Under the pieces are notes generated by a model. That model was not told where the DNA came from. It ran no database searches and saw nothing but the letters and a program-made list of their open reading frames with translations. A DNA stretch of 64,000 nucleotides from NCBI GenBank assembly GCA_963803805.1, contig CAWDOD010000002.1:1184001-1248000 (forward strand), given 5' to 3'. Positions 30,913 through 43,248 of the stretch are shown here, piece by piece (within the stretch, counting starts at the first letter, position 1; every line of letters starts with the position of its first letter). The position numbers and the translations under genes were made by a program. The DNA is from an uncultured cyanobacterium. Lineage in GTDB: Bacteria; Cyanobacteriota; Cyanobacteriia; Cyanobacteriales; CAWCAG01.

Positions 30913-32859
30913 TTATTCTAGAGCCAATCTTCTGGTATCTTCCACCATACGAATGAATTCTTGGCGATATCCTTCTCGATCTTCTCCTTTACCTTCCCTG
31001 GCTAATTCTAATATTTGATTGAAGGTAGTTGCTCCTTTATACTTAGATTCCCTTAGCATCATGCCATAGGCTGCTACAGCAGCAGAAAATTTAAAATCCC
31101 TAGAAGCTTCTTCTAGTGTGAGGTTCGCGTCAGTGAGGGGATTGGCAATCAGTTGAGAGGTTTCTCCCTGGGGTTCTTTGTAACGTAATTTTACATTTAG
31201 TAATTCATTCCCCATAGAGGTTTCTGTATTTATAGGAGGGGTTTGGTAGCGCAGAGGATCTATTTCTGGTAATTCTAGATCCGTTTCCACTCCCACAGGA
31301 ATAATTTCATAAAGGGCAGTAACAGAATGTCCTGCCCCTAATTCCCCGGCATCTTTAGTATCATCGTTAAAATCTTGGTCTTGTAAAAGACGATTTTCGT
31401 AACCGATTAAGCGATATGCTTGAACTTTTTCTGGGTTGAATTCTACTTGCAATTTTACATCTTTAGCAATAGTGAATAGAGTTGCTCCCATTTCCTTGAC
31501 AAGTACTTTTCTCGCTTCTAAAAGACTATCTATATAAGCATAGTTGCCATTACCTTTATTAGCTAATTGTTCTATTTTTGCATCTTGCAAATTTCCTGTA
31601 CCGAAGCCCAATGTAGTGAGAAAAATACCATCCTGGCGCTTTTCTTCAATCAAACGAACTAATTCCGCCTCACTAGAAACACCAACGTTAAAGTCTCCAT
31701 CCGTAGCCAAAATAACGCGGTTATTTCCAGATTTAATAAAGTTATCTTTAGCAAGTTTATAAGCAAGATTAATACCTTCTCCCCCTGCGGTTGAACCTCC
31801 CGCTTCTAAACTATTTATAGCCGCCAGAATTTTATCTTTTTGATTCCCAGGGGTAGGAAGTAGAACGACTCCTGCCGCCCCAGCATAAACAACAATGGTG
31901 ACGCGATCATTGCCATCTAATTCATTAACTAAGAGTTGGAAAGCAGACTTTAATAAAGGCAGTTTATCAGGAGAGTCCATAGAACCGGAAACGTCCAATA
32001 AAAAGACCAAATTATTAGGAGGAATATTTTTTTGCTCAATACGTTTTCCTTGCAAACCGATATGGACTAATTTATGTTCTTTATGCCAAGGGGCTTGAGC
32101 TATTTCTGTGGTCAAGGAGAATGGTTTATCACCCTCTGGTTGAGGATAGTTATAAGTGAAATAATTAATTAGTTCTTCAATTCTGACGGCATCTTTGGGA
32201 GGTAGTTCACCTTCTTTAATAAAGCGCCTAACATTACTATAGGAAGCTGTATCTACATCAATAGAAAAGGTTGATAAAGGTTTATTTATAGTTCTAAAGA
32301 AAGGATTTTCATCAATAGGATTATATTCTTCGCGATTAAAATCTTCTGGTAAATTATTATCAGGACGACTAGGAGAAGGATAACGAGTAATTTCAGCATT
32401 ACCACCACTTACTCTTCCTAATGTTCTAAGCGGAATACCAGGAGAAGGCAAATCTCTACGCCCTATTACTTCTGCTTCATTAACCGTTAATACAGGTTTA
32501 AATTTCTGTTGTAACTGTTGCAGTGCGGTGATATCTTCAGGAGAAATAATACTAGCGTTACCTTGATTTTTTATTTCCTCTAGTTTATTTAAACAATCCT
32601 CAACAGCAAGAGCAAAAGCCTCACGAGTTATAGTTTCTTTTATGATAATTTCTTCGCTACATTCATACTTTTTACTAATTGCTTCAAGGGCTTGAAACTG
32701 CTCATCTTCTGCTGTTATTTCTGCTTCTTCTGCCACAGCAGGATCAAGAGAAATCAAGAGTGCGATCGCCAAAGTTAATCCTAAGCAAAATGAGCTTAAA
32801 ATTGCAGCTATGGACGAGATAAATTTATTCATTATTTTCCCCTCTTTAGAAATATTCAT
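30913..32859 (-). CDS. YfbK-like VWA domain protein with signal peptide and SLH-like N-terminal module
   Basis: STFSIDVDTASY, MIDAS DVSGS, ATDGDFNVG, YRLIGYENR and FNDD.KDAGE. Confidence 0.88.
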   Translation of the reverse strand: MNISKEGKIMNKFISSIAAILSSFCLGLTLAIALLISLDPAVAEEAEITAEDEQFQALEAISKKYECSEEIIIKETITREAFALAVEDCLNKLEEIKNQGNASIISPEDITALQQLQQKFKPVLTVNEAEVIGRRDLPSPGIPLRTLGRVSGGNAEITRYPSPSRPDNNLPEDFNREEYNPIDENPFFRTINKPLSTFSIDVDTASYSNVRRFIKEGELPPKDAVRIEELINYFTYNYPQPEGDKPFSLTTEIAQAPWHKEHKLVHIGLQGKRIEQKNIPPNNLVFLLDVSGSMDSPDKLPLLKSAFQLLVNELDGNDRVTIVVYAGAAGVVLLPTPGNQKDKILAAINSLEAGGSTAGGEGINLAYKLAKDNFIKSGNNRVILATDGDFNVGVSSEAELVRLIEEKRQDGIFLTTLGFGTGNLQDAKIEQLANKGNGNYAYIDSLLEARKVLVKEMGATLFTIAKDVKLQVEFNPEKVQAYRLIGYENRLLQDQDFNDDTKDAGELGAGHSVTALYEIIPVGVETDLELPEIDPLRYQTPPINTETSMGNELLNVKLRYKEPQGETSQLIANPLTDANLTLEEASRDFKFSAAVAAYGMMLRESKYKGATTFNQILELAREGKGEDREGYRQEFIRMVEDTRRLALE

Positions 32860-33507: not shown

Positions 33508-35541
33508 TTAAAAAGTCGCTTCTGCCTTACGACTTTTTAATAAGTAGGTAGGCATTTTTCCTTTGCCTTTTATATCAACCAAACCTCGTTGTTGGAAATT
33601 ATATTCATCTCTAAGACGCTGAAAAGTTTCTTCTGTTACTTGTATTTCATCAGCAATACCTTGAGATTCCATACGACTAGCAATATTCACAGTATCTCCC
33701 CACAAATCGTAGGTAAATTTTTTCGTACCAATCACCCCTGCCACCACAGATCCTGTATTAACTCCAATGCGGATACTAAATGGTTTCTCTTGGGTGGTAT
33801 TAAATCTCGCCATAACTGTTTGTATATCTAAAGCCATTTCTGCGATCGCTTCAGCATGATTTTCGCGCTGGGTAGGCAAACCTCCAACTACCATATAAGC
33901 ATCACCAACGGTTTTGATTTTTTCTAAGCCATATTTTTCGGTTAAGCGATCAAACTCAGAAAAGATAGCATTAAGAATTTCCACTAATTCAATAGGAGAT
34001 AAAGAAGAAGCCAAATGAGTAAAACCAACTAAATCAGCAAATAAAACTGTCACCTCATCAAAACTATCCGCAATAGTACTGGGTTGCTGCTTTAATCGCT
34101 CAGCAATAGGTAAAGGTAAAATATTTAGCAACAGAGTTTCTGTTTGTTTTTGCTCTTCCCGTAAAGCCAACTCTACTTTTTTCCGTTGAATAAATTGACC
34201 TAATTGATTGCCAATTGCTGTCATAATTTTCAGCACTTCTGGGTCAATTTTCTGTGTTTCTCGACTAAAGAAAGTCATTACTCCCAAAACTTCACCACGA
34301 TTTTGAATTGGGAAACCAAAAGCAGAACTCAAACCTGCTTTGACAGCGAAAGAACTCTGACCAAAATCAGCATCTTCATTAACATTTGTAATCCATTGAG
34401 GACATTGGCTAGCCCAAACTCTTCCTGCTAAACCCATACCAGAAGGAAGATAAATTTGTTTAGTTACTTCAATAAATTTTCCTGCGGCATCAGCATTTTT
34501 TGACCATATTTCCATACGCCTTAAAGAAATATCACTGCTAACTTCAAGATGATTCTTAGAATTTCTATTAATAGTAATAGGAGTCCAAAGTTCTCCAATA
34601 TTCCAACTAAGACTTTCGCAAACAGATTGCAAAATCTCAGGAGTAGCTTGTTCCAAAGAAGAAGTTTCTGAAAGGACTCTGGCTACAGAATACTGAACTG
34701 CTTGACGCTGTTGAGCGCGTTTACTTTGAGTTATATCTCTACCTATATAAATAAAATCATAGCTTCCTTTTAGTTCTGTTTCTACTAAGGAACAAGAAAA
34801 AGAAATCGTTAGATGTTCCCCGCTTTTATTGCGACAAGTTATTTCAATATTTTTGCAAATTCCTTGTTCTTTATTAGCTAATAATTCTCTATGTACGTTC
34901 GTTAAAGATATATTATTATCATTAATTAAAGCTAAAAACTGATTACCAACAAGTTCATTTTCTCCATAGCCTAAAACATCTTGGGCTGCTTGATTAATAG
35001 CTTTAATAGTCCCTTCAAAATCGAGAACAACCATGGCATCAGCCATAGAAGTAATCAATTTACTAAAATACTGTTGTGAAGCACTAAAAGCCTCAAAAAA
35101 GAGATTTGCCTCATTATTAACTTGTACTAAATTTCGTTCTAATAAAATTTGTTCCGTAACATCTTCTAGAAAAACAATCAAACATTTTTGCTCATTCTCC
35201 GGATGTTTGTAGAGATTAACGAATAAATTAATAAAGATAGTATCTTTTTCTTCTCTAAAACGACTAATACTCCGCAACTGTAAATTATCTTTTTCTTCTA
35301 GTAAAATGCTTTGCAAATCTTCTTCATAACCCTGTAATTCTGCAAATCCTAGGCGAATATCTTGTCCTCTATTAATAGTATTTGCTTCTACTACAAATTG
35401 CGTTGCCTTCCAAGACCGATCAATTATAGTTAGGTTACTATCTAAAATAATATATTCTAAATGGTTAGGAACTACAATTCTCCTGGTTAAGGACTTCATA
35501 GGTGCTATGTATTTGACAGAACCGTGCATATGTTTGACCAA
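33508..35541 (-). CDS. PAS-GAF class III adenylate cyclase
   Basis: LLLNILP, VLFADLVGFT, KIKTVGDAYM and YDLWGDTVNIASRME (Lys/Asp adenine specificity). Confidence 0.92.
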   Translation of the reverse strand: MVKHMHGSVKYIAPMKSLTRRIVVPNHLEYIILDSNLTIIDRSWKATQFVVEANTINRGQDIRLGFAELQGYEEDLQSILLEEKDNLQLRSISRFREEKDTIFINLFVNLYKHPENEQKCLIVFLEDVTEQILLERNLVQVNNEANLFFEAFSASQQYFSKLITSMADAMVVLDFEGTIKAINQAAQDVLGYGENELVGNQFLALINDNNISLTNVHRELLANKEQGICKNIEITCRNKSGEHLTISFSCSLVETELKGSYDFIYIGRDITQSKRAQQRQAVQYSVARVLSETSSLEQATPEILQSVCESLSWNIGELWTPITINRNSKNHLEVSSDISLRRMEIWSKNADAAGKFIEVTKQIYLPSGMGLAGRVWASQCPQWITNVNEDADFGQSSFAVKAGLSSAFGFPIQNRGEVLGVMTFFSRETQKIDPEVLKIMTAIGNQLGQFIQRKKVELALREEQKQTETLLLNILPLPIAERLKQQPSTIADSFDEVTVLFADLVGFTHLASSLSPIELVEILNAIFSEFDRLTEKYGLEKIKTVGDAYMVVGGLPTQRENHAEAIAEMALDIQTVMARFNTTQEKPFSIRIGVNTGSVVAGVIGTKKFTYDLWGDTVNIASRMESQGIADEIQVTEETFQRLRDEYNFQQRGLVDIKGKGKMPTYLLKSRKAEATF

Positions 35542-35805: not shown

Positions 35806-35963
35806 GATTTTTGCTGATTATCCAAAACCTATCTCTACAGTTGTTGAGTTAGAGAAAGCTTAGCGCTAGCCTTGTTACTATGACTACGCTACAAAGAATC
35901 ATCAGGAATTATTTAGTTAAATAACACAAAAATGCCAATAGGGGCATCACCCCTCAGATATCT

Positions 35964-36491
35964 TTAAGTCACTATGGTAGATGATAGTGTGTGGAACATC
36001 TCGTCTACATCTTTGCCAGTTTTAGCTGAAGTTGTGTAGGTAGCAATCACTTGGGGGAAATCTTGCAGATTATTTTCCGCCAGTAACTTTTCTTGTTTCT
36101 CCTCGTCTAACAAATCGGTTTTGTTAAAAGCAACAATACTAACTCCTTTGGGATTAACTGACTTGAAAAGCTTGATGTGCTGCGGGATATTGTCAATGGT
36201 TTCTGGGCGAGTTACATCGCAGACAATAATCACTCCTGCAGCACCTTGTAAATAGGTAGGGGCGATCGCTTTGAACTTAGTCTGTCCTTCTATATCCCAG
36301 ATGAGCAGTTGTACTTGGATAGGTTCACTCTCACCCTTGTCCTCTAACTGCACCGCCTTGCGGGAAATTTTTACTCCTACAGTGGATAAGTATTGATCGC
36401 TAAACTGGCGATCTACAAAGCGTCGGATTAAGCTAGTCTTACCTACACTAAAGTCACCAATGAGACAGATTTTTTTGGAAATAGTGGTCAT
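35964..36491 (-). CDS. Rab/Ras-like small GTPase
   Basis: G1 GDFSVGKTS, G2 YLSTVG, G3 WDIEGQ, G4 NKTD and G5 TSAK. Confidence 0.92.
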   Translation of the reverse strand: MTTISKKICLIGDFSVGKTSLIRRFVDRQFSDQYLSTVGVKISRKAVQLEDKGESEPIQVQLLIWDIEGQTKFKAIAPTYLQGAAGVIIVCDVTRPETIDNIPQHIKLFKSVNPKGVSIVAFNKTDLLDEEKQEKLLAENNLQDFPQVIATYTTSAKTGKDVDEMFHTLSSTIVT

Positions 36492-36493
36492 TT

Positions 36494-39111
36494 CTAGTTT
36501 GATTTTCCTGGCGGGCTGAACAAATTAAAGCGCACACATCTACTTAACCACATTGGCTGTTCAGGAGTCACATCTGGGGGCATTTTAGCTGTACCGGATA
36601 TTTTAATTCGTTTAGGATCTACTCCTTGCTCCTCTAAGGCTTGTTTTACCGCCTTAGCCCTACCTGTGGCAAGTTCTCTATTTTCTTTTTCGCCTCCTAT
36701 GCGATCTACATGGCCAGTTATTTCCAGTTTAGCCTTGGGGTTAATTTCCAGGAACTCTTGAATAGGAACGATAAACTCACTCATATATTCTGGCTTAAGT
36801 GTCTTAGAACCCAATTCAAAATAGATACGTTCTTCTAAAGCTTTTAATTTTAAGTTATCAATATTAACAGAGTTAACCCCAGCAATTTTTTCTAATTCTT
36901 CAACAATCTTAGGGATATCTGTAGCTTTGTCTACTGTCCCTTTAACAGTAACGATTCTATCTTCATAACTACTGGTAATCTCAATACCTGGTTGTTCCTC
37001 AAGTAGGGCTGTCTTTAATTCTATTGCCGTATCAACTAATTCTGGTGGTACATCTACCGCCACAATTTGATTCTCGATTTTCAAATCGGGATTGTTGGCT
37101 TGGATAATTTCTGTGGCCCTTTCTTTAAGGGCAGGGTTCGGTACTCTTCCGGTTAAAATTAATTTGTTACCCTTCAATTTCGGGGTTATGTTAGCAAAGT
37201 ACAACTCCGGTGCTTGGGCTATCGTTGTAGTAGTTTTTGCTTCAATACGTTCGGCCAGATTAGCTCGATAAAGATAAAAGCCCCAAGGCAAACCTAACAG
37301 AAACAAGATTAACAACGCTAATTTTAAAATTCCTTGGGGAGAACGCTTTTCTGTTTCTTCTTGCTCAACAAATTTCTCTACTGGAGCAAGTTCCATTAGC
37401 CGTTCGAGCCAAGAGTGAATTTCTTCTGGAACTGTGGTGGGATCACCGGCAAAGTTTTTTATTTCACTGCCATACTTCTGATTAATCTTGCCCATAGTGA
37501 AGCGCATTTTTTTGATAAATACATCTGAAGGTTTTCCTTTAAGCACCACCGCCAGATAGCAATAGCCTGCTGGTTCAATAATTACCCTAGAGTTGCCATA
37601 TTCAATTTCACTAAGTTCAGAAATATTTTCTGATTGAATAATACAATCATTAACAAAACCGCGAATAGCTGTGAGCATTCCTGCCAACATATCTGCTTCG
37701 AGTCTTTCGTCTTCTGAAGGCTGAGCTTTTTCAATCACCAACCCAGAAGTTGTCTGAATCAAAAATACCGCCTTAACCGTAAAACCGACTGATTCGAGGA
37801 GAATTAGTTCTGCATCAGATACCCCTTGTACCTTCGCACGCATCTTACGCATTACTCCTTGGGGACTCAAGGTGTGTTCCACTTTTTCGTTAATAGAACT
37901 AACTACTTCTCCCATATATTTAGAGACGGTACTGCCAATTACTGGGTAAAGGGCATCTACCATCGCTTCCCTTTCACATTCGATTTGGGCCCTAATTGCT
38001 TTACCCATTTCCGGCCCTAGGGCTTCAGAAATGGCGTTTTGTTGTAGCTTACTTTGCTCCCTAATTGCTGTAGCGATTTCTGGGGCCAGGGCCTTAGCTA
38101 TTTCTTCAGGAGAGTCTTGAATTTGCTTCCTAATGGCCCCAGGAATTAAATCAGCGATCGCAGAACTCATCGCGCCACGATTTTGGGAAGAGCGTTCTTG
38201 AATAACGCGATCAATAACCGGAACCATACGTCCTAGAATTTGGTCTTGAGATTCAGATAACTGGCTTTTGAGGAGTTCTACCATCAAAGGTACAATCTCA
38301 TTAAGCATCTGTGTGGTTTTGTCGGCTTGATGCTCTACTTGGACAAATTTGTCCTCTAATTCCTCTACTGACTGGCGGAGGCGTTCTTGTTCAATAGATT
38401 CTCTTATAGATAGAGAACGACGGGTCTTAGTTTTGCGAGGTAGCTTTACTTTTCCTGATTTTGCTAGTAGTTCTTGCAAATCATCCCAAACAGAAGATAG
38501 AGTCCTACTAGAGTTCTGCTGAGGCATGGATTCGAGCCACTCAGGGACAGGTAAAGAAGTGGTCTTGTTTTTTGGTTCGGGATGATTATCTTTTGGTACT
38601 TCAGTCGTAGGATTGAGGTTTTCTGAAGTGCTTTCTTCAAAGGAAGGCTGTTCCTGTGAAGGGCTTTCTGTTGAGGAGATAATGCTCTGTTGTTCAGTAT
38701 CAGCTTTCTTTTCCTTCTTTCGCTCTTCTAGCTGAACTTTAGGGGCATTGAGGTTTTCTGAAGTGCTTTCTTCAAGGGAAGGCTGTTCTTGTGAGGAGCT
38801 TTCTGTTGAGGAGATAATGCTCTCCTCAGTTTCGGCTTTATCTTCCTTCTCTTTCTCTTCAGGTTTAGATGAAAAACCTTTTTCTTGAGGTTTAACTACA
38901 TTTTCCAACATCGCCCATAAATCAGCTTGATGCTGGTTCTCAGTTTCTTTTGTAGAGGGAGAAACTGAAGGGGAAGAAAGCTCTTTTTTTCTTCTTGTAG
39001 CTCCAATAATAAATCAACCAATTCTTCCATAGGTTGTTCTTGGGGTGACAATTCTGCTTGGGAACTTAAAAGCGAGTTTTCTTGATTGGGTTGTTCTTTT
39101 GATAACGCCAT
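36494..39111 (-). CDS. Coiled-coil / longin-roadblock-like / TM / BON / OmpA membrane protein, split by a frameshift in an A7 tract near 38984-38990
   Basis: Adding one A joins ORF 38896-39111 to ORF 36494-38911 via ...EEKKELSSPSV...DLWAMLENV. OmpA motifs IYFELGS, ITGHVD..G, N.EL...RA.AV and RCVRF. Confidence 0.8.
38612..38845. repeat. 135-bp tandem duplication (45 aa) in the disordered N-terminus
   Basis: ATTGAGGTTTTCTGAAGTGCTTTCTTCAA at 38612 and 38747; SIISSTES.SQEQPS.EESTSENLN twice. Confidence 0.85.
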
Positions 39112-39414
39112 AAACTGCCGTCCAATATGCTCAATTATTCATTTTCTCTCTTCAGGCTGCGAAACAGTAGTCTGTCACCTTTAGCATGAGACTATAAACA
39201 ATTAAGATATCCCAAGCTCTTAAGTTCAGTCTGCTCGGTTTAAAGGAGTTTGTAATCGCCAACCAGCTTTTTTGGTAGTTAAGTATAGTTTCTGTCAATT
39301 ATACTTAACTACCATAGTAAATGTATTCACTAATCTCAAGTTAGAGTGAGAGACTAGGGCGGCATTTTAAACATTTACTAATTTCGAGTAAGATTCCTTA
39401 AGCTTAAAAGAACT

Positions 39415-40014
39415 TTATTGTTGTTCTGGCAAAAGAAAATCTGCTTGGACATTATTGTCTGAAGCCTCCTTTAAATCGGGAACGAAATCTGCTCCTTTGA
39501 TTTTGATACAAAGTTCAAACAGTACCTCGGCTAAATCATCCCTCGAAACTTTAATATCTTTTAAAGCATCTAGTTCTGCTTCAATCTTGCTGATAATCTG
39601 ATTCTTAAAGCTGTATATATCTTCTTGCAGCTTTTCTTTATTTTGAGAAATTTCTTCTCTAATCGTATCGGTTTTGAGCTTAAAGTCTTGGCTAAGAGTA
39701 TCTATATCTCTGGTTGTGGTTCTTTCCCTTCTAGCGCTATCTTGAATTATTTTATTAATTTCTTCATGGGTAGTTAAGCCCAAGTACTTAATTTTTTTTT
39801 CTAGAGAATTAACAGAATCTTGCAGCTTTTCAGACAAAGATGATTGTATCTCAGATAACTGTTCGCGCATTTCCTGCTTAAAGCCAGTTAAATCTGACTC
39901 CAACTGGTTAAACCTTCCGGCAAATTCTTCTTCTTTGCTACCAAACAATAAGTCGCGAATTTGATCGATATTACCGAGTCTTTCCCGCATCTCATCTTTA
40001 CTAATGTCATTCAT
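39415..40014 (-). CDS. Coiled-coil protein of unknown function
   Basis: NIDQIRDLLFG N-terminal motif, heptad-rich body, KVSRDDLAEVLFEL; RBS GGAGG upstream. Confidence 0.75.
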   Translation of the reverse strand: MNDISKDEMRERLGNIDQIRDLLFGSKEEEFAGRFNQLESDLTGFKQEMREQLSEIQSSLSEKLQDSVNSLEKKIKYLGLTTHEEINKIIQDSARRERTTTRDIDTLSQDFKLKTDTIREEISQNKEKLQEDIYSFKNQIISKIEAELDALKDIKVSRDDLAEVLFELCIKIKGADFVPDLKEASDNNVQADFLLPEQQ

Positions 40015-40273: not shown

Positions 40274-42256
40274 TTAGGAAGTGGGAGAATTATTAGCTAG
40301 CCATTTTAACCATTGTAAAAATGAACTAAGGGGATTTAAAGGAGTTAACCCTGGGGCGTGATTAGAGGCTAAATGGTCTACAACTTTCAAAGCTGTGTAT
40401 TGTAAACCCAAGAAGCTATCAACAGCCGCATAGGGGCCCCCTAACGTAGTTGCACCTGCTGCATACATTCTTCCCTTCCCAGTCCGCATTTGTACCAACT
40501 CAAAATTATTGCTTACCCAAAGGCGTTTAAGGTGGTTGAGGGGGAGTTGGTAGTGGTTGATGAGATCATTAAGGAGAGGACTAGCGCTGACATCGGCATC
40601 CAGCCCTGTGGCATCGATGATGAAATCAGCTTGTAAGCGCATTTCTCCTTTCATGTTTTTTTCTTGAATATAAGTAATAACATCTTCAGATTCTTTCTCC
40701 ACCCTTTTTACTTCGCCAAACTCGATTCTGTACCACCCCTGACTTAAACCGTCCCTAACAATTTTCTGCCAATCACGACGATCGGCGGTGGTAGTTCCTC
40801 CCCAGTCAGCAATCAATCTTTTGCGTTGTTCTGGGTTAGCTTTTTCTAATTCAAGGCGCAAATCCCCTCCCCAACAAGCTTTAGGCCAATTGAAGGGTTG
40901 AAATTCGAGATGATTTTCCACTAGTCTTTGGGTTTGGCGAAATTTCTGCCCCACGGGTTTGGGAGAACGCATTAAGTTAATGAGGCGAATGTGAGGGTTT
41001 TTACTTCTTGCTTCATAAACCCGTTGAATAATCCGCGAAGCAACGATTCCCCGCCCCCGAATCACTACTGTACCCCCAAGTTTTTCTAAATGTTCGTAAA
41101 CATGATCATGGGGTTCGTAGGCGTTGACCACTGATTTAAAATCCTGGGTCTTTTCCCGATAGGCTTGTAAGTCAGGGAGAAATTTAATGGCTGGATAACC
41201 AATGGCTAAATGGAGGTAGCTGGCGACTAAAAAAGCCCGTTCCCGCCCTGTACTAGTAGTCCGAGAATAGGCGATCGCATATCTACCGTCACTAGTTTGG
41301 CGAATGCTACGGGCGCTACCATAACGGAACATTTGTTGCCAACCGATGCGTTGTTGTTCCCTATCTACAGAATCAAAGACGTTTTCAGCTTTAGGGGTAT
41401 AGGTTTCGCTAAAAGTTGGCTCACTAAAAACTTGCCACAAATATCTTAAAGAATTGGTTAATTTTCCTTTCTGTAAATCCCTCCATGCTTCCCGCAAGGC
41501 ATAACTAGGCCAGCCCCAAATATTATCAGGACAAGAATCGGAATTAGACCGCAATCTTTCTCGGAGGGGGATTTGAGAGTTGAGGCAAAGTTGTTTGTAA
41601 CGCCCGTAGGGCAGTGTATCTACCCCTAAAGCAATAATTTGCTCTGGTTTAACTCCGTATATACGTAAAAAATCCACCCACACAAAACTCCCCATTCCTG
41701 CACCGATAGTTAAATAATCCACCTCATCTACAGGCAAGCCTGTGGCATAGAGGTCTTGGAGTTCAACTTTTTCAGCTTGGAACGCCGCTGGGGGAAAACT
41801 TCTAGGGGCAGGAGTTACAGGTACTAGTTGCTGCTGTTGAGGGTCGAGTACATTTGTAGTGGGGTTGAAAACGATTTGAGAATCTTTCCCTGGAGAGGGA
41901 GGAGGTGCAGTTGTGCCAAATGAGAGAATAATGGTGATTTCATAGGGGCCAACTTGGATGGTGTCCCCATTATCTAAAGTAGCTTGTTTTTGAGCTTGGC
42001 CATTGACTAAAATGCCATTACGACTATTTTGGTCTTTGACTACCAAACCACCGTTTTCCCAGGCAATAAGGACATGAAAGCGAGAAACTTCCAAGCTATT
42101 AAGTACCAGCCTAGAAACCCTCTGATTACCAAAATTAACAGGCATACGCGGGAACTCCCGACCCAAAGCAATAGGAAGTTGCAATACTGGTTCTCGCAGT
42201 TCTCCAGTAGCCAGATCTGCCCAACTTAATTTGACTTGTAGAGGAGAGAAAGCCAT
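40274..42256 (-). CDS. FHA domain fused to an FAD/NAD(P)-binding oxidoreductase-like domain
   Basis: FHA GR...VSRFH...SRNG. IGAGMG, LRSNS, RGRGIVA, IIDATG and YAAG are flavoprotein-like motifs. Confidence 0.75.
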   Translation of the reverse strand: MAFSPLQVKLSWADLATGELREPVLQLPIALGREFPRMPVNFGNQRVSRLVLNSLEVSRFHVLIAWENGGLVVKDQNSRNGILVNGQAQKQATLDNGDTIQVGPYEITIILSFGTTAPPPSPGKDSQIVFNPTTNVLDPQQQQLVPVTPAPRSFPPAAFQAEKVELQDLYATGLPVDEVDYLTIGAGMGSFVWVDFLRIYGVKPEQIIALGVDTLPYGRYKQLCLNSQIPLRERLRSNSDSCPDNIWGWPSYALREAWRDLQKGKLTNSLRYLWQVFSEPTFSETYTPKAENVFDSVDREQQRIGWQQMFRYGSARSIRQTSDGRYAIAYSRTTSTGRERAFLVASYLHLAIGYPAIKFLPDLQAYREKTQDFKSVVNAYEPHDHVYEHLEKLGGTVVIRGRGIVASRIIQRVYEARSKNPHIRLINLMRSPKPVGQKFRQTQRLVENHLEFQPFNWPKACWGGDLRLELEKANPEQRKRLIADWGGTTTADRRDWQKIVRDGLSQGWYRIEFGEVKRVEKESEDVITYIQEKNMKGEMRLQADFIIDATGLDADVSASPLLNDLINHYQLPLNHLKRLWVSNNFELVQMRTGKGRMYAAGATTLGGPYAAVDSFLGLQYTALKVVDHLASNHAPGLTPLNPLSSFLQWLKWLANNSPTS

Positions 42257-42337
42257 TTACTCAGTTATCATTAAACATTAAACATTGAACATTTTATAGA
42301 GTTTCATAATTATCAATTATTGATTAGCTACTAGCCA

Positions 42338-42673
42338 TTAGCTACTAGCAACCCCTAATGTAATAGTAATTTCGTAGGGATCAATAAATAAGACATCTCT
42401 GTTAGCTAGGATGCTACGAGTTTTTGCTTGACCATTAATTAAAACTCCGTTACGACTAGTTTGGTCAGTGACGAGGAAACTACTATTTTCCCAAGTGATT
42501 AGGGCGTGGAATCGAGATACTTGAGAATCTTTCAATACCATGCGAGAAACTCGCTTCCCTCCAATTTCTTCTGGCATATCGCTAAATTCTCGCCCCAAAG
42601 CAATAGGTACAGTTAAAATTGGCGATCGCTTCTTTCCGGTAGAGGGTTCTTGCCAACTCAATTGAATTTGCAT
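42338..42673 (-). CDS. Stand-alone FHA domain protein (start reassigned to MQIQLSW)
   Basis: IALGRE...VSRFHA...SRNG; the longer ORF call overlaps the upstream gene. Confidence 0.8.
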   Translation of the reverse strand: MQIQLSWQEPSTGKKRSPILTVPIALGREFSDMPEEIGGKRVSRMVLKDSQVSRFHALITWENSSFLVTDQTSRNGVLINGQAKTRSILANRDVLFIDPYEITITLGVASS

Positions 42674-42699
42674 AGGAATTTTTAAGTAAGGAAATAGGG

Positions 42700-43248
42700 T
42701 TAGCTTTTGGGAACTAAAATACTCGCTGCCCCCGCTAAAGAAGTGCCGCACCACTGACAGCCCAAATCTATTCTTTCGTAGGAGGAAATGCGATGACAAT
42801 GGGGACATTCTAATCCATAGTTACCACTATTCAAAGCAGGGTTATTAACAGCTTGAGGAACTTGCTGAGGTGGAGGAGGCACAATTACTGTTTGGGGAAA
42901 GTTGTTGCTAGGTAAATCTATAACCATTTGCACAACGTTGAGAGTCATTTGCCCTAAATTAATCACGCTACCTTGACTAAGTTTTGCTTCTCCTTGAATG
43001 ATTCTTTTTCCATCTACAAAGGGAGGATTAGACTGTCTTAAATTTCTTAATAAAAATTGCTTTCGGTGAACATCGAAAAATATTTCTATATGCAATCCGG
43101 AGACAGTAGGATCATTTAAAACTACGTCGCAACGCCCAGGATTGCGACCAATGCGAACAGTTCCAGAATTCTTGCTTGGTTGATTTTCTTTAATATTTAT
43201 AGTTTGAGTTTGGTTTGCTTCTTGCCAGCTTAAAGTAAGTTCAGACAT
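42700..43248 (-). CDS. FHA domain protein with C-terminal zinc ribbon
   Basis: IGR...VSGLH; CPHC...CQWCG. Confidence 0.85.
   Translation of the reverse strand: MSELTLSWQEANQTQTINIKENQPSKNSGTVRIGRNPGRCDVVLNDPTVSGLHIEIFFDVHRKQFLLRNLRQSNPPFVDGKRIIQGEAKLSQGSVINLGQMTLNVVQMVIDLPSNNFPQTVIVPPPPQQVPQAVNNPALNSGNYGLECPHCHRISSYERIDLGCQWCGTSLAGAASILVPKS

Follow-up and report, generated by a model that had tools for sequence, protein, structure and literature searches.

How might a Rab-like small GTPase that carries no prenylation site be coupled to the envelope of a bacterial cell? The question is raised by a gene cassette on the minus strand of a 64,000-nucleotide (nt) stretch of contig CAWDOD010000002.1 (positions 1,184,001-1,248,000; assembly GCA_963803805.1) from an uncultured cyanobacterium (CAWCAG01); we call this whole stretch the window, and all coordinates are positions within it. 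A preliminary description, made from the sequence alone, had singled out three genes: a 199-amino acid (aa) helical protein, a coiled-coil candidate encoded by the cassette's first gene (39415..40014); an 805-aa inner-membrane protein (36494..38911); and a 175-aa GTPase (35964..36491), a small Ras-superfamily member with a Rab-like sequence that we assign to the Rup1 (Group 1 Rup) type. Our analysis indicates with good confidence that the membrane protein contains a domain predicted to adopt the longin fold. Structure prediction places this domain on the switch regions of the GTPase, and the conserved cassette extends to a fourth gene (33508..35541) encoding a signalling enzyme.

The open reading frames (ORFs) of the cassette all lie on the minus strand, and the junction between the membrane-protein and GTPase genes consists of the stop codon TAG, the bases AA and the GTPase ATG, a 2-bp spacer. 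The GTPase matches Pfam Ras at 105.3 bits (cut-off 21.6) and Roc at 96.9 bits, and carries all five signature motifs: G1 GDFSVGKT (residues 12-19), G2 T37, G3 DIEGQ (66-70), G4 NKTD (123-126) and G5 SAK (155-157). Its C-terminus (...FHTLSSTIVT) contains no Cys in the tail and therefore no prenylation site of the kind expected of a eukaryotic Rab. When the protein was compared with the sequences of solved structures in the PDB, the best 60 of 309 matches were all Rabs (3.1e-24 to 2.3e-19), led by Rab1a (3.1e-24) and including Rab22, Rab35, Rab8 and Sec4 near the top. The three genes, their 2-bp junction, the G1-G5 motifs and the missing prenylation tail were thus present as first reported.

All four components of a neighbourhood described by Wuichet and Sogaard-Andersen (2014, Genome Biol Evol 7:57; PMC4316618), who defined the Rup family computationally, are present here, the coiled-coil protein as a candidate, and recur in related loci; on these grounds the locus is a member of the Group 1 Rup (Rup1) cassette, newly added to it here. 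The preliminary description had known of no functional account, but the neighbourhood had been described computationally in 2014. As set out in that paper, it comprises a cytoplasmic coiled-coil protein, a protein combining an unknown conserved domain with a transmembrane (TM) segment and OmpA, the GTPase, and a signalling output. The same source places Cyanobacteria among the host phyla, describes the Group 1 Rup GTPases as lacking the conserved G3 Gln and the signalling output as bearing an invariant Gln in its N-terminal region, names diguanylate cyclase/phosphodiesterase fusions or histidine kinases as the typical outputs, and cites Dong et al. 2007 for transcription of a Nostoc punctiforme member. 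It left the fold of the partner's conserved domain unassigned. Later trees have kept Rup1 as a bacterial group beside Rab/Ras/Rho/Ran and Asgard RasL (bioRxiv 10.1101/2024.02.28.582541), and a 2024 structural paper treats longin as a feature of Asgard archaea and eukaryotes, and Roadblock as sporadic in bacteria (PMC10933270). A literature search in which most subscription journals were beyond reach found no longin or Roadblock assignment of the Rup1 partner, and the predicted longin fold of this partner is the sole point at which the present analysis goes beyond the 2014 description.

We aligned residues 345-520 of the membrane protein with 46 homologues (alignment A1) and folded the domain with AlphaFold2. 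The resulting model had a mean predicted local distance difference test score (pLDDT) of 80.5 and a predicted template modelling score (pTM) of 0.73; within the domain core, nine of eleven ten-residue blocks scored 83-95 and one loop block scored 61. The order of elements in the predicted model (strand-strand-helix-strand-strand-strand-helix-helix) is that of the longin topology, and the predicted core, residues 377-506 (37394..37783), coincides with the segment at 37785-37440 for which a longin/Roadblock-like fold had first been suggested. Foldseek returned 44 matches against the PDB at E<=1e-3; among the matches listed, all were longin or Roadblock, and they include COPI zeta, Ykt6, AP sigma subunits, Sec22b, the C-terminal domains of Rag proteins, LAMTORs and MglB (4.8e-4). 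VIA-align, which is independent of Foldseek, likewise gave 50 listed entries that were all longin/Roadblock proteins or contained such a domain. Its best match was the VAMP7 longin domain (Z 13.3, root-mean-square deviation 2.4, 119 residues aligned), ahead of Sec22 (Z 12.2), synbindin and AP-3 sigma (both Z 11.7), sedlin (Z 11.3), a Lokiarchaeota longin (Z 10.8), Mon1-Ccz1 (Z 9.1-9.4), Roadblock proteins (Z 8.5-9.7 over ~100 residues), MglB (Z 9.1) and DENND1A (Z 8.9). Because the longin matches span the two C-terminal helices whereas the Roadblock matches end earlier, we call the predicted domain longin-type, with a Roadblock assignment still conceivable; a helix before strand 1, which is a Roadblock feature, occupies model residues 22-29, in blocks with pLDDT 55-59.

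The family of the predicted domain is large. A search with the domain alone recovered 2920 representatives at E<=1e-3, and it was present in 44 of the 301 sampled genomes of the phylum, corresponding to 30 of 134 genera. One representative of 2171 aa (P0255) has three separate stretches that match the longin region at 28% identity and otherwise shows weak matches to CARDB, TPR and DUF5915 only, which places the domain in a very different architecture.

We predicted a complex of the GTPase with the longin domain in two copies (residues 364-509), in three runs alongside three controls. The median interaction prediction score from aligned errors (ipSAE) was 0.66 (runs 0.60-0.75), as compared with 0.00 for the best control; contact agreement was at least 80% and partner pLDDT at least 77. 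On the GTPase side, the predicted contacts fall on residues 2-7, 34-44, 61-65 and 75-85, which we assign, from where they lie with respect to the G2 and G3 motifs, to switch I, the interswitch and switch II. The longin side contributes the strand 1-2 hairpin, the first helix of both copies and chain residues 144-148 (protein residues 488-492), and this first helix carries an invariant G-M-L-T-A-I-R-x-F motif (residues 411-419). Conservation is concentrated at the longin interface, where 16 of 26 residues are at least 90% conserved, compared with 34 of 120 elsewhere (Fisher one-sided p 0.0016). These predictions support, but do not demonstrate, binding of the GTPase by the longin domain, and they are in line with the partnership of the two that was first suggested.

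To what extent do the genes stay together? We surveyed the neighbourhoods of the 80 best related loci, many of which come from related Nostoc and Microcoleus genomes and are therefore not independent. A GTPase homologue was found in 66 of them, downstream and on the same strand in 65; in 50 of these 65 the distance from where the membrane-protein match ends is within 100 nt, and in 4 it exceeds 300 nt. A homologue of the 199-aa protein is encoded upstream on the same strand in 60 of the 80. The same order recurs in a distant paralogous class, with 27-31% identity in the longin region (two rows aligned in A4): helical protein, longin membrane protein, Ras-family GTPase and kinase or cyclase follow one another in three of four cassettes from three genomes, and in the fourth the upstream helical-protein ORF was not among the ORFs scanned. 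The co-conservation expected of the three genes was therefore observed both among close relatives and in this distant class.

The survey also revealed that the cassette does not end with the GTPase, as the three-gene operon first proposed would have it: the three genes are co-conserved, but a fourth conserved gene at 33508-35541 had been missed. It encodes a 677-aa signalling enzyme with a divergent N-terminal PAS-like module, a long helix, and PAS, GAF and class III cyclase domains (Pfam Guanylate_cyc 223.7 bits, plus GAF_2 and PAS_9); its true start is likely the ATG at 35499 (Met15). In the gene that follows the GTPase, the region corresponding to residues 15-277 is conserved across 57 related loci whatever the output domain. 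Among 52 downstream ORFs, the outputs were 21 hybrid histidine kinases, 9 histidine kinases, 11 class III cyclases and 8 GAF-GGDEF proteins, with no output domain at threshold in the remaining 3. The class III cyclases, including the one in the window, differ from the typical outputs named for Group 1 Rup in the 2014 description (PMC4316618). Such a combination, one constant input module with differing outputs, usually marks a common upstream signal.

Within this region, the conserved N-terminal module (residues 15-165; 35047..35499) was characterized through an alignment of 57 sequences (alignment A2), AlphaFold2 and Foldseek. In ORF numbering, the alignment contains the invariant residues Y30, S43, E68, G71, R94 and Q140. 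The predicted model (pLDDT 86.5) has PAS topology, with a five-stranded core followed by a helix (115-150) bearing Q140, and Foldseek gave 213 matches at E<=1e-3, headed by LOV/PAS proteins (4.9e-6); Pfam PAS gave no match over residues 15-140. We regard this PAS-like module as a candidate receiver of the GTPase signal. The preliminary description had raised a role in polarity or division; the conserved signalling-enzyme gene points instead to second-messenger or two-component signalling.

The remaining parts of the 805-aa protein suggest how such a signal might originate at the envelope. Its acidic, Ser/Glu/Lys-rich N-terminus (residues 1-140; 38492..38911) is probably disordered and contains a ~25-aa motif twice, although Tandem Repeats Finder detected no DNA tandem repeat in this region of the gene; its length varies, with listed homologues of 449-1289 aa and up to 2171 aa in the domain-only search. 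It is followed by helical repeats of the A-I-x-x-A-x-x-P type (residues ~185-360; 37832..38359, from alignment A1) that end in a near-invariant DALYPVIG motif. The repeat region had no Pfam match, and an ESM Atlas feature search gave only unnamed bacterial clusters, those for the helical-plus-longin part being from Chloroflexota and Pseudomonadota. Residues 1-560 as a whole matched no family in Pfam, NCBIfam or PADLOC. After the longin domain comes a single transmembrane helix, ILKLALLILFLLGLPWGFYLY (residues ~525-547; 37271..37339), with a Kyte-Doolittle peak of 2.06 at residue 527 in a 19-residue window; apart from it, only the first strand of the longin domain peaks above 1.6. The C-terminal part consists of periplasmic BON-type segments (residues ~580-690; 36842..37174) and an OmpA-like peptidoglycan-binding domain (residues 697-779; 36575..36823). 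Pfam BON matches in two stretches, the best at 632-690 (9.3e-12, 45.5 bits, cut-off 27), with a sub-threshold NCBIfam match to the ArfA/OmpATb N-terminal region over 580-675, and Pfam OmpA matches at 5.4e-16 (59.2 bits, cut-off 27.2). The OmpA motif HVD...N-R-E-L-A-x-x-R-A is present, and in A1 near-invariance extends to its G, D and R columns. A wall-anchored topology with the N-terminus inside and the C-terminus outside is the only one that fits all of these parts, each of which, from the disordered N-terminus to the OmpA domain, had been recognized in the preliminary description.

The membrane protein is present in a single copy in the window's own genome. Elsewhere it has 1333 homologues at E<=1e-3 and 570 relatives among species genomes, numbers that argue against the cassette architecture being a product of chance. 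The named homologues listed are all cyanobacterial and are annotated as OmpA family, BON domain-containing, MotB (partial) or hypothetical protein.

Together, these results lead us to propose a trans-envelope relay from a wall-anchored longin protein through a Rup GTPase to a signalling enzyme, a scheme that we consider about evenly balanced between right and wrong. The 805-aa protein would reside in the inner membrane, its N-terminus facing the cytoplasm, and its periplasmic BON-OmpA region would bind peptidoglycan, either anchoring the protein or sensing the wall. The cytoplasmic longin domain, probably as a dimer, would dock the GTPase through switch I, the interswitch and switch II and set its nucleotide state. 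We favour a role like that of guanine nucleotide exchange factors (GEFs) because the closest fold class includes GEFs of Rabs; action of the GTPase-activating protein (GAP) type, or a dual role of the kind described for MglB, which has been reported as both GEF and GAP (PMC11016934), would also be possible. The active GTPase would then act on the PAS-like N-terminal module of the neighbouring enzyme. In this genome, where a PAS-GAF adenylate/guanylate cyclase takes that place, envelope state might thereby be converted into a cyclic-nucleotide signal, and in other species the output would be cyclic di-GMP (c-di-GMP) or a phosphorelay. Gene content, domain make-up, co-conservation and the predicted fold and interface come from the analysis itself; we infer that the two proteins bind, in which direction regulation runs, which signal is sensed, how the cyclase is linked and what the coiled-coil protein does. 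The more specific version of this proposal, in which the partner domain is a true longin-type GEF, or a dual GEF/GAP, within a wall-anchored trans-envelope receptor that feeds cyclic AMP, c-di-GMP and phosphorelay outputs, seems to us plausible but a little short of an even chance.

Several observations weigh against the relay. The longin assignment is drawn solely from predicted structure: a profile of the domain (alignment A4) found no longin or Roadblock protein among PDB sequences, the best match being TolR (E 0.11), and Pfam had no match to the window's copy and, among 47 members, a single weak one to Fuz_longin_1 (E 0.0021), with Robl_LC7 absent from the Pfam matches. Enrichment of conserved residues at the GTPase interface was not significant (12 of 25, compared with 49 of 150; p 0.10), and the complex score may reflect remembered solved structures of MglA-MglB, Rag-Ragulator and Rab-longin GEF complexes. 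Among solved complexes, 116 of 157 attained this ipSAE mark, as did 2 of 215 mismatched pairs, a calibration that is only rough for a prediction made with custom alignments and two longin copies. At 14 of the 80 related loci, mostly from Microcoleus, the membrane protein is a ~1200-aa paralogue that has no adjacent GTPase. In the window's own genome, a 503-bp gap separates the 199-aa gene from the membrane-protein gene, and ~420 bp together with a terminator-like hairpin and T-run (35931..35948, minus strand, 16 nt past the GTPase stop codon; consensus scan) separate the GTPase and cyclase genes, which makes co-transcription of the cyclase gene doubtful here; the hairpin itself is weak evidence, because the terminator scan found 7 sites in the region as compared with 5.2 expected from shuffles. 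Our literature search, limited as described above, found no experiment on any Rup1 member. Finally, the present data fit a GEF, a GAP or passive docking alike.

Passive docking is the alternative that survives best, and it draws on two positions of the GTPase. In 66 family sequences, G1, T37, WDxEG, NKxD and SAK are invariant, and the position after G3 (residue 70) is variable: 33 have His, 25 Ser, 7 Gln and 1 Arg. The window's copy is among the 7 with Gln. The Rab-like 'EGQ' layout noted in the preliminary description therefore holds for this GTPase, as do its matches to Rabs, but the Gln is not a feature of the family. At the position that we take to be equivalent to Gly12 of Ras, 64 of the 66 have Phe. 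The rarity of the Gln fits a GTPase that relies on partners for its cycle, as the relay proposes too, and, judging from these two positions, the Rup1 family probably does not use the textbook mechanism of a cis-Gln combined with an arginine finger.

Under passive docking, the longin domain would be a mere membrane docking site, similar to Ragulator, and the invariant Gln of the output module would act in trans as the GAP residue. In addition to these two GTPase positions, this explanation is favoured by the invariance of Q140 in the N-terminal module of all 57 sequences, and the trans-Gln hypothesis has been published by Wuichet and Sogaard-Andersen (PMC4316618). Longin/Roadblock dimers are pure scaffolds in Ragulator, which is consistent with PMC10933270. 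In the predicted model of the module, however, Q140 lies on a long helix after the PAS core and not on an exposed loop, an arrangement that would resemble a signalling helix more than a catalytic finger. The window's own GTPase, moreover, belongs to the minority of Group 1 Rup proteins that keep the Gln in cis, and the predicted contacts of the longin domain cover both switch regions, a pattern typical for a regulator or effector and not for a distal anchor. We consider passive docking unlikely, although it is the strongest competitor to a regulatory longin domain.

A switch for polarity, motility or division has a precedent in MglA/MglB of Myxococcus xanthus and Thermus thermophilus, the best-studied bacterial pair of a small GTPase and a Roadblock protein (PMC13408092, PMC11016934). 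As predicted here, that pair combines a bacterial Ras-like GTPase with a Roadblock/longin-class dimer that contacts the switch regions. Most named homologues of the membrane protein come from filamentous, often gliding, cyanobacteria, and a wall anchor could mark a fixed position in the cell. MglB, however, is a small soluble Roadblock protein, whereas the domain in the window fits longin better (Z 13.3 as compared with 9-9.7) and shares its chain with a TM helix and a wall anchor. The GTPase here is of the Rup family and not of the MglA family (PMC4316618), and what consistently follows it is a gene for a signalling enzyme instead of one for polarity, motility or division. Conserved pilus, Min or Fts genes are likewise missing from the neighbourhood. 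A role of this kind is, in our estimation, improbable.

We attach equally little credence to the proposal that the longin-like domain is unconnected with the GTPase and is a dimerisation or small-ligand module of the profilin/longin/GAF-like class, linked to its neighbours by co-regulation only. Its appeal stems from the missing sequence-level link to GTPase-regulating longin/Roadblock families, from the GTPase-independent members of the fold class, among them the SNARE longins at the head of the structural matches, and from the 14 loci at which no GTPase is adjacent. Against it stand the tight, often near-overlapping linkage that is kept down to 27-31% identity, a predicted complex that scores far above its controls, and the conservation of the predicted interface. 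A defence-system reading was rejected because the domains shared with such systems are generic (PADLOC matched ZorB/MotB on the OmpA part at 1.8e-5 and Pycsar cyclases on the cyclase domain) and no defence genes are conserved nearby.

How does the proposed relay compare with systems already described? The 2014 paper draws an analogy with the actinobacterial conservon (CvnA-D; PMC4316618), in which a kinase acts as the membrane sensor, with the Roadblock protein a separate, soluble component; in the Rup1 cassette, by contrast, the predicted longin-class domain belongs to the wall-anchored membrane component, and the output enzyme is cytoplasmic. The eukaryotic longin regulators of Rabs (TRAPP Bet5/Trs23, Mon1-Ccz1 and DENN) and the Asgard longins have in common with the present system a Rab-like GTPase as partner and, by prediction, the fold, but no sequence similarity to them was detected. 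They differ further in that the longin domain studied here belongs to a single-pass protein with a periplasmic BON-OmpA region, and that its GTPase has neither a prenylation tail nor a membrane-traffic context. The anchors MotB, Pal, TssL and ArfA likewise place a C-terminal OmpA-like domain after a single TM helix with the N-terminus inside, and ArfA/OmpATb has the same BON and OmpA arrangement, to which the NCBIfam matches are sub-threshold; unlike the protein in the window, none of these anchors has a ~520-residue cytoplasmic region bearing a longin domain or is coupled to a small GTPase. The observation from which this analysis started is confirmed, and its interpretation as a GTPase switch acting across the envelope is partly supported.

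If the partner domain is a true longin-type GEF or dual GEF/GAP in such a receptor, a longin-GTPase regulatory pair, usually regarded as a hallmark of Asgard archaea and eukaryotes, would also occur as an operon-encoded unit across bacteria, beside the bacterial GTPases that group with Rab/Ras/Rho/Ran. Such a pair would bear on the origin of the eukaryotic longin-GTPase pairing. If the partner is a longin-type regulator, bacteria would offer an operon-encoded model of longin control over Rab-like GTPases, and many cyanobacteria would possess a direct route from the cell wall to both cyclic-nucleotide and two-component signalling. As fragments, the cassette proteins are small and soluble enough for straightforward biochemistry.

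The 199-aa protein had only sub-threshold Pfam matches to helical-repeat families (Apolipoprotein 1.6e-6, 28.4 bits, cut-off 90), and ESM Atlas placed it in unnamed cyanobacterial clusters only. It also resembles the long cytoplasmic tail of ZorA from the Zorya system weakly (best 1.3e-5), and to judge from the sequences this likeness and that to ZorB probably reflect generic coiled-coil and OmpA resemblance.

Several related loci depart from the common arrangement. Only at L017, among the 66 with a GTPase homologue, is that homologue encoded on the opposite strand; it lies ~2 kb downstream of the gene for the membrane protein. At the loci of the ~1200-aa paralogue (L029, L040, L051, L052, L055, L061, L063, L066, L069, L075, L077, L084, L085 and L078), the adjacent GTPase and signalling gene are both absent, and at L029 the flanking ORFs are on the opposite strand; Microcoleus genomes carry both this orphan paralogue and a complete cassette. 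The cassettes of the distant class (L093, 5079-9719; L094, 2579-6965 and 8486-11555; L095, 5241-10206) encode longin membrane proteins of ~600 aa and GTPases of 165 aa, and one genome has two tandem copies. The OmpA match is absent from the membrane protein of L095 and from the shorter, 465-aa protein of L094. Two contigs labelled Candidatus Sericytochromatia and Acetobacteraceae (L019 and L059) carry cassettes that are 55-65% identical to the window proteins and resemble the cyanobacterial ones, and these bins may be mis-assigned.

A promoter scan of the region found 20 sites, only slightly above the 17.4 expected from shuffles. The genes that flank the cassette on the same strand were rejected as parts of it, with matches at 0 of the 80 related loci. 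One of them, downstream of the cyclase gene, encodes a 648-aa secreted or membrane protein (30913-32859) with a region judged by sequence to be vWA-like. Directly upstream of the cassette are three FHA-domain genes (40274-43248): the product of one has 660 aa, carries an FHA domain at its N-terminus and shows a weak FAD-oxidoreductase-like match, and the two smaller FHA ORFs overlap each other (42338-42808 and 42700-43248).

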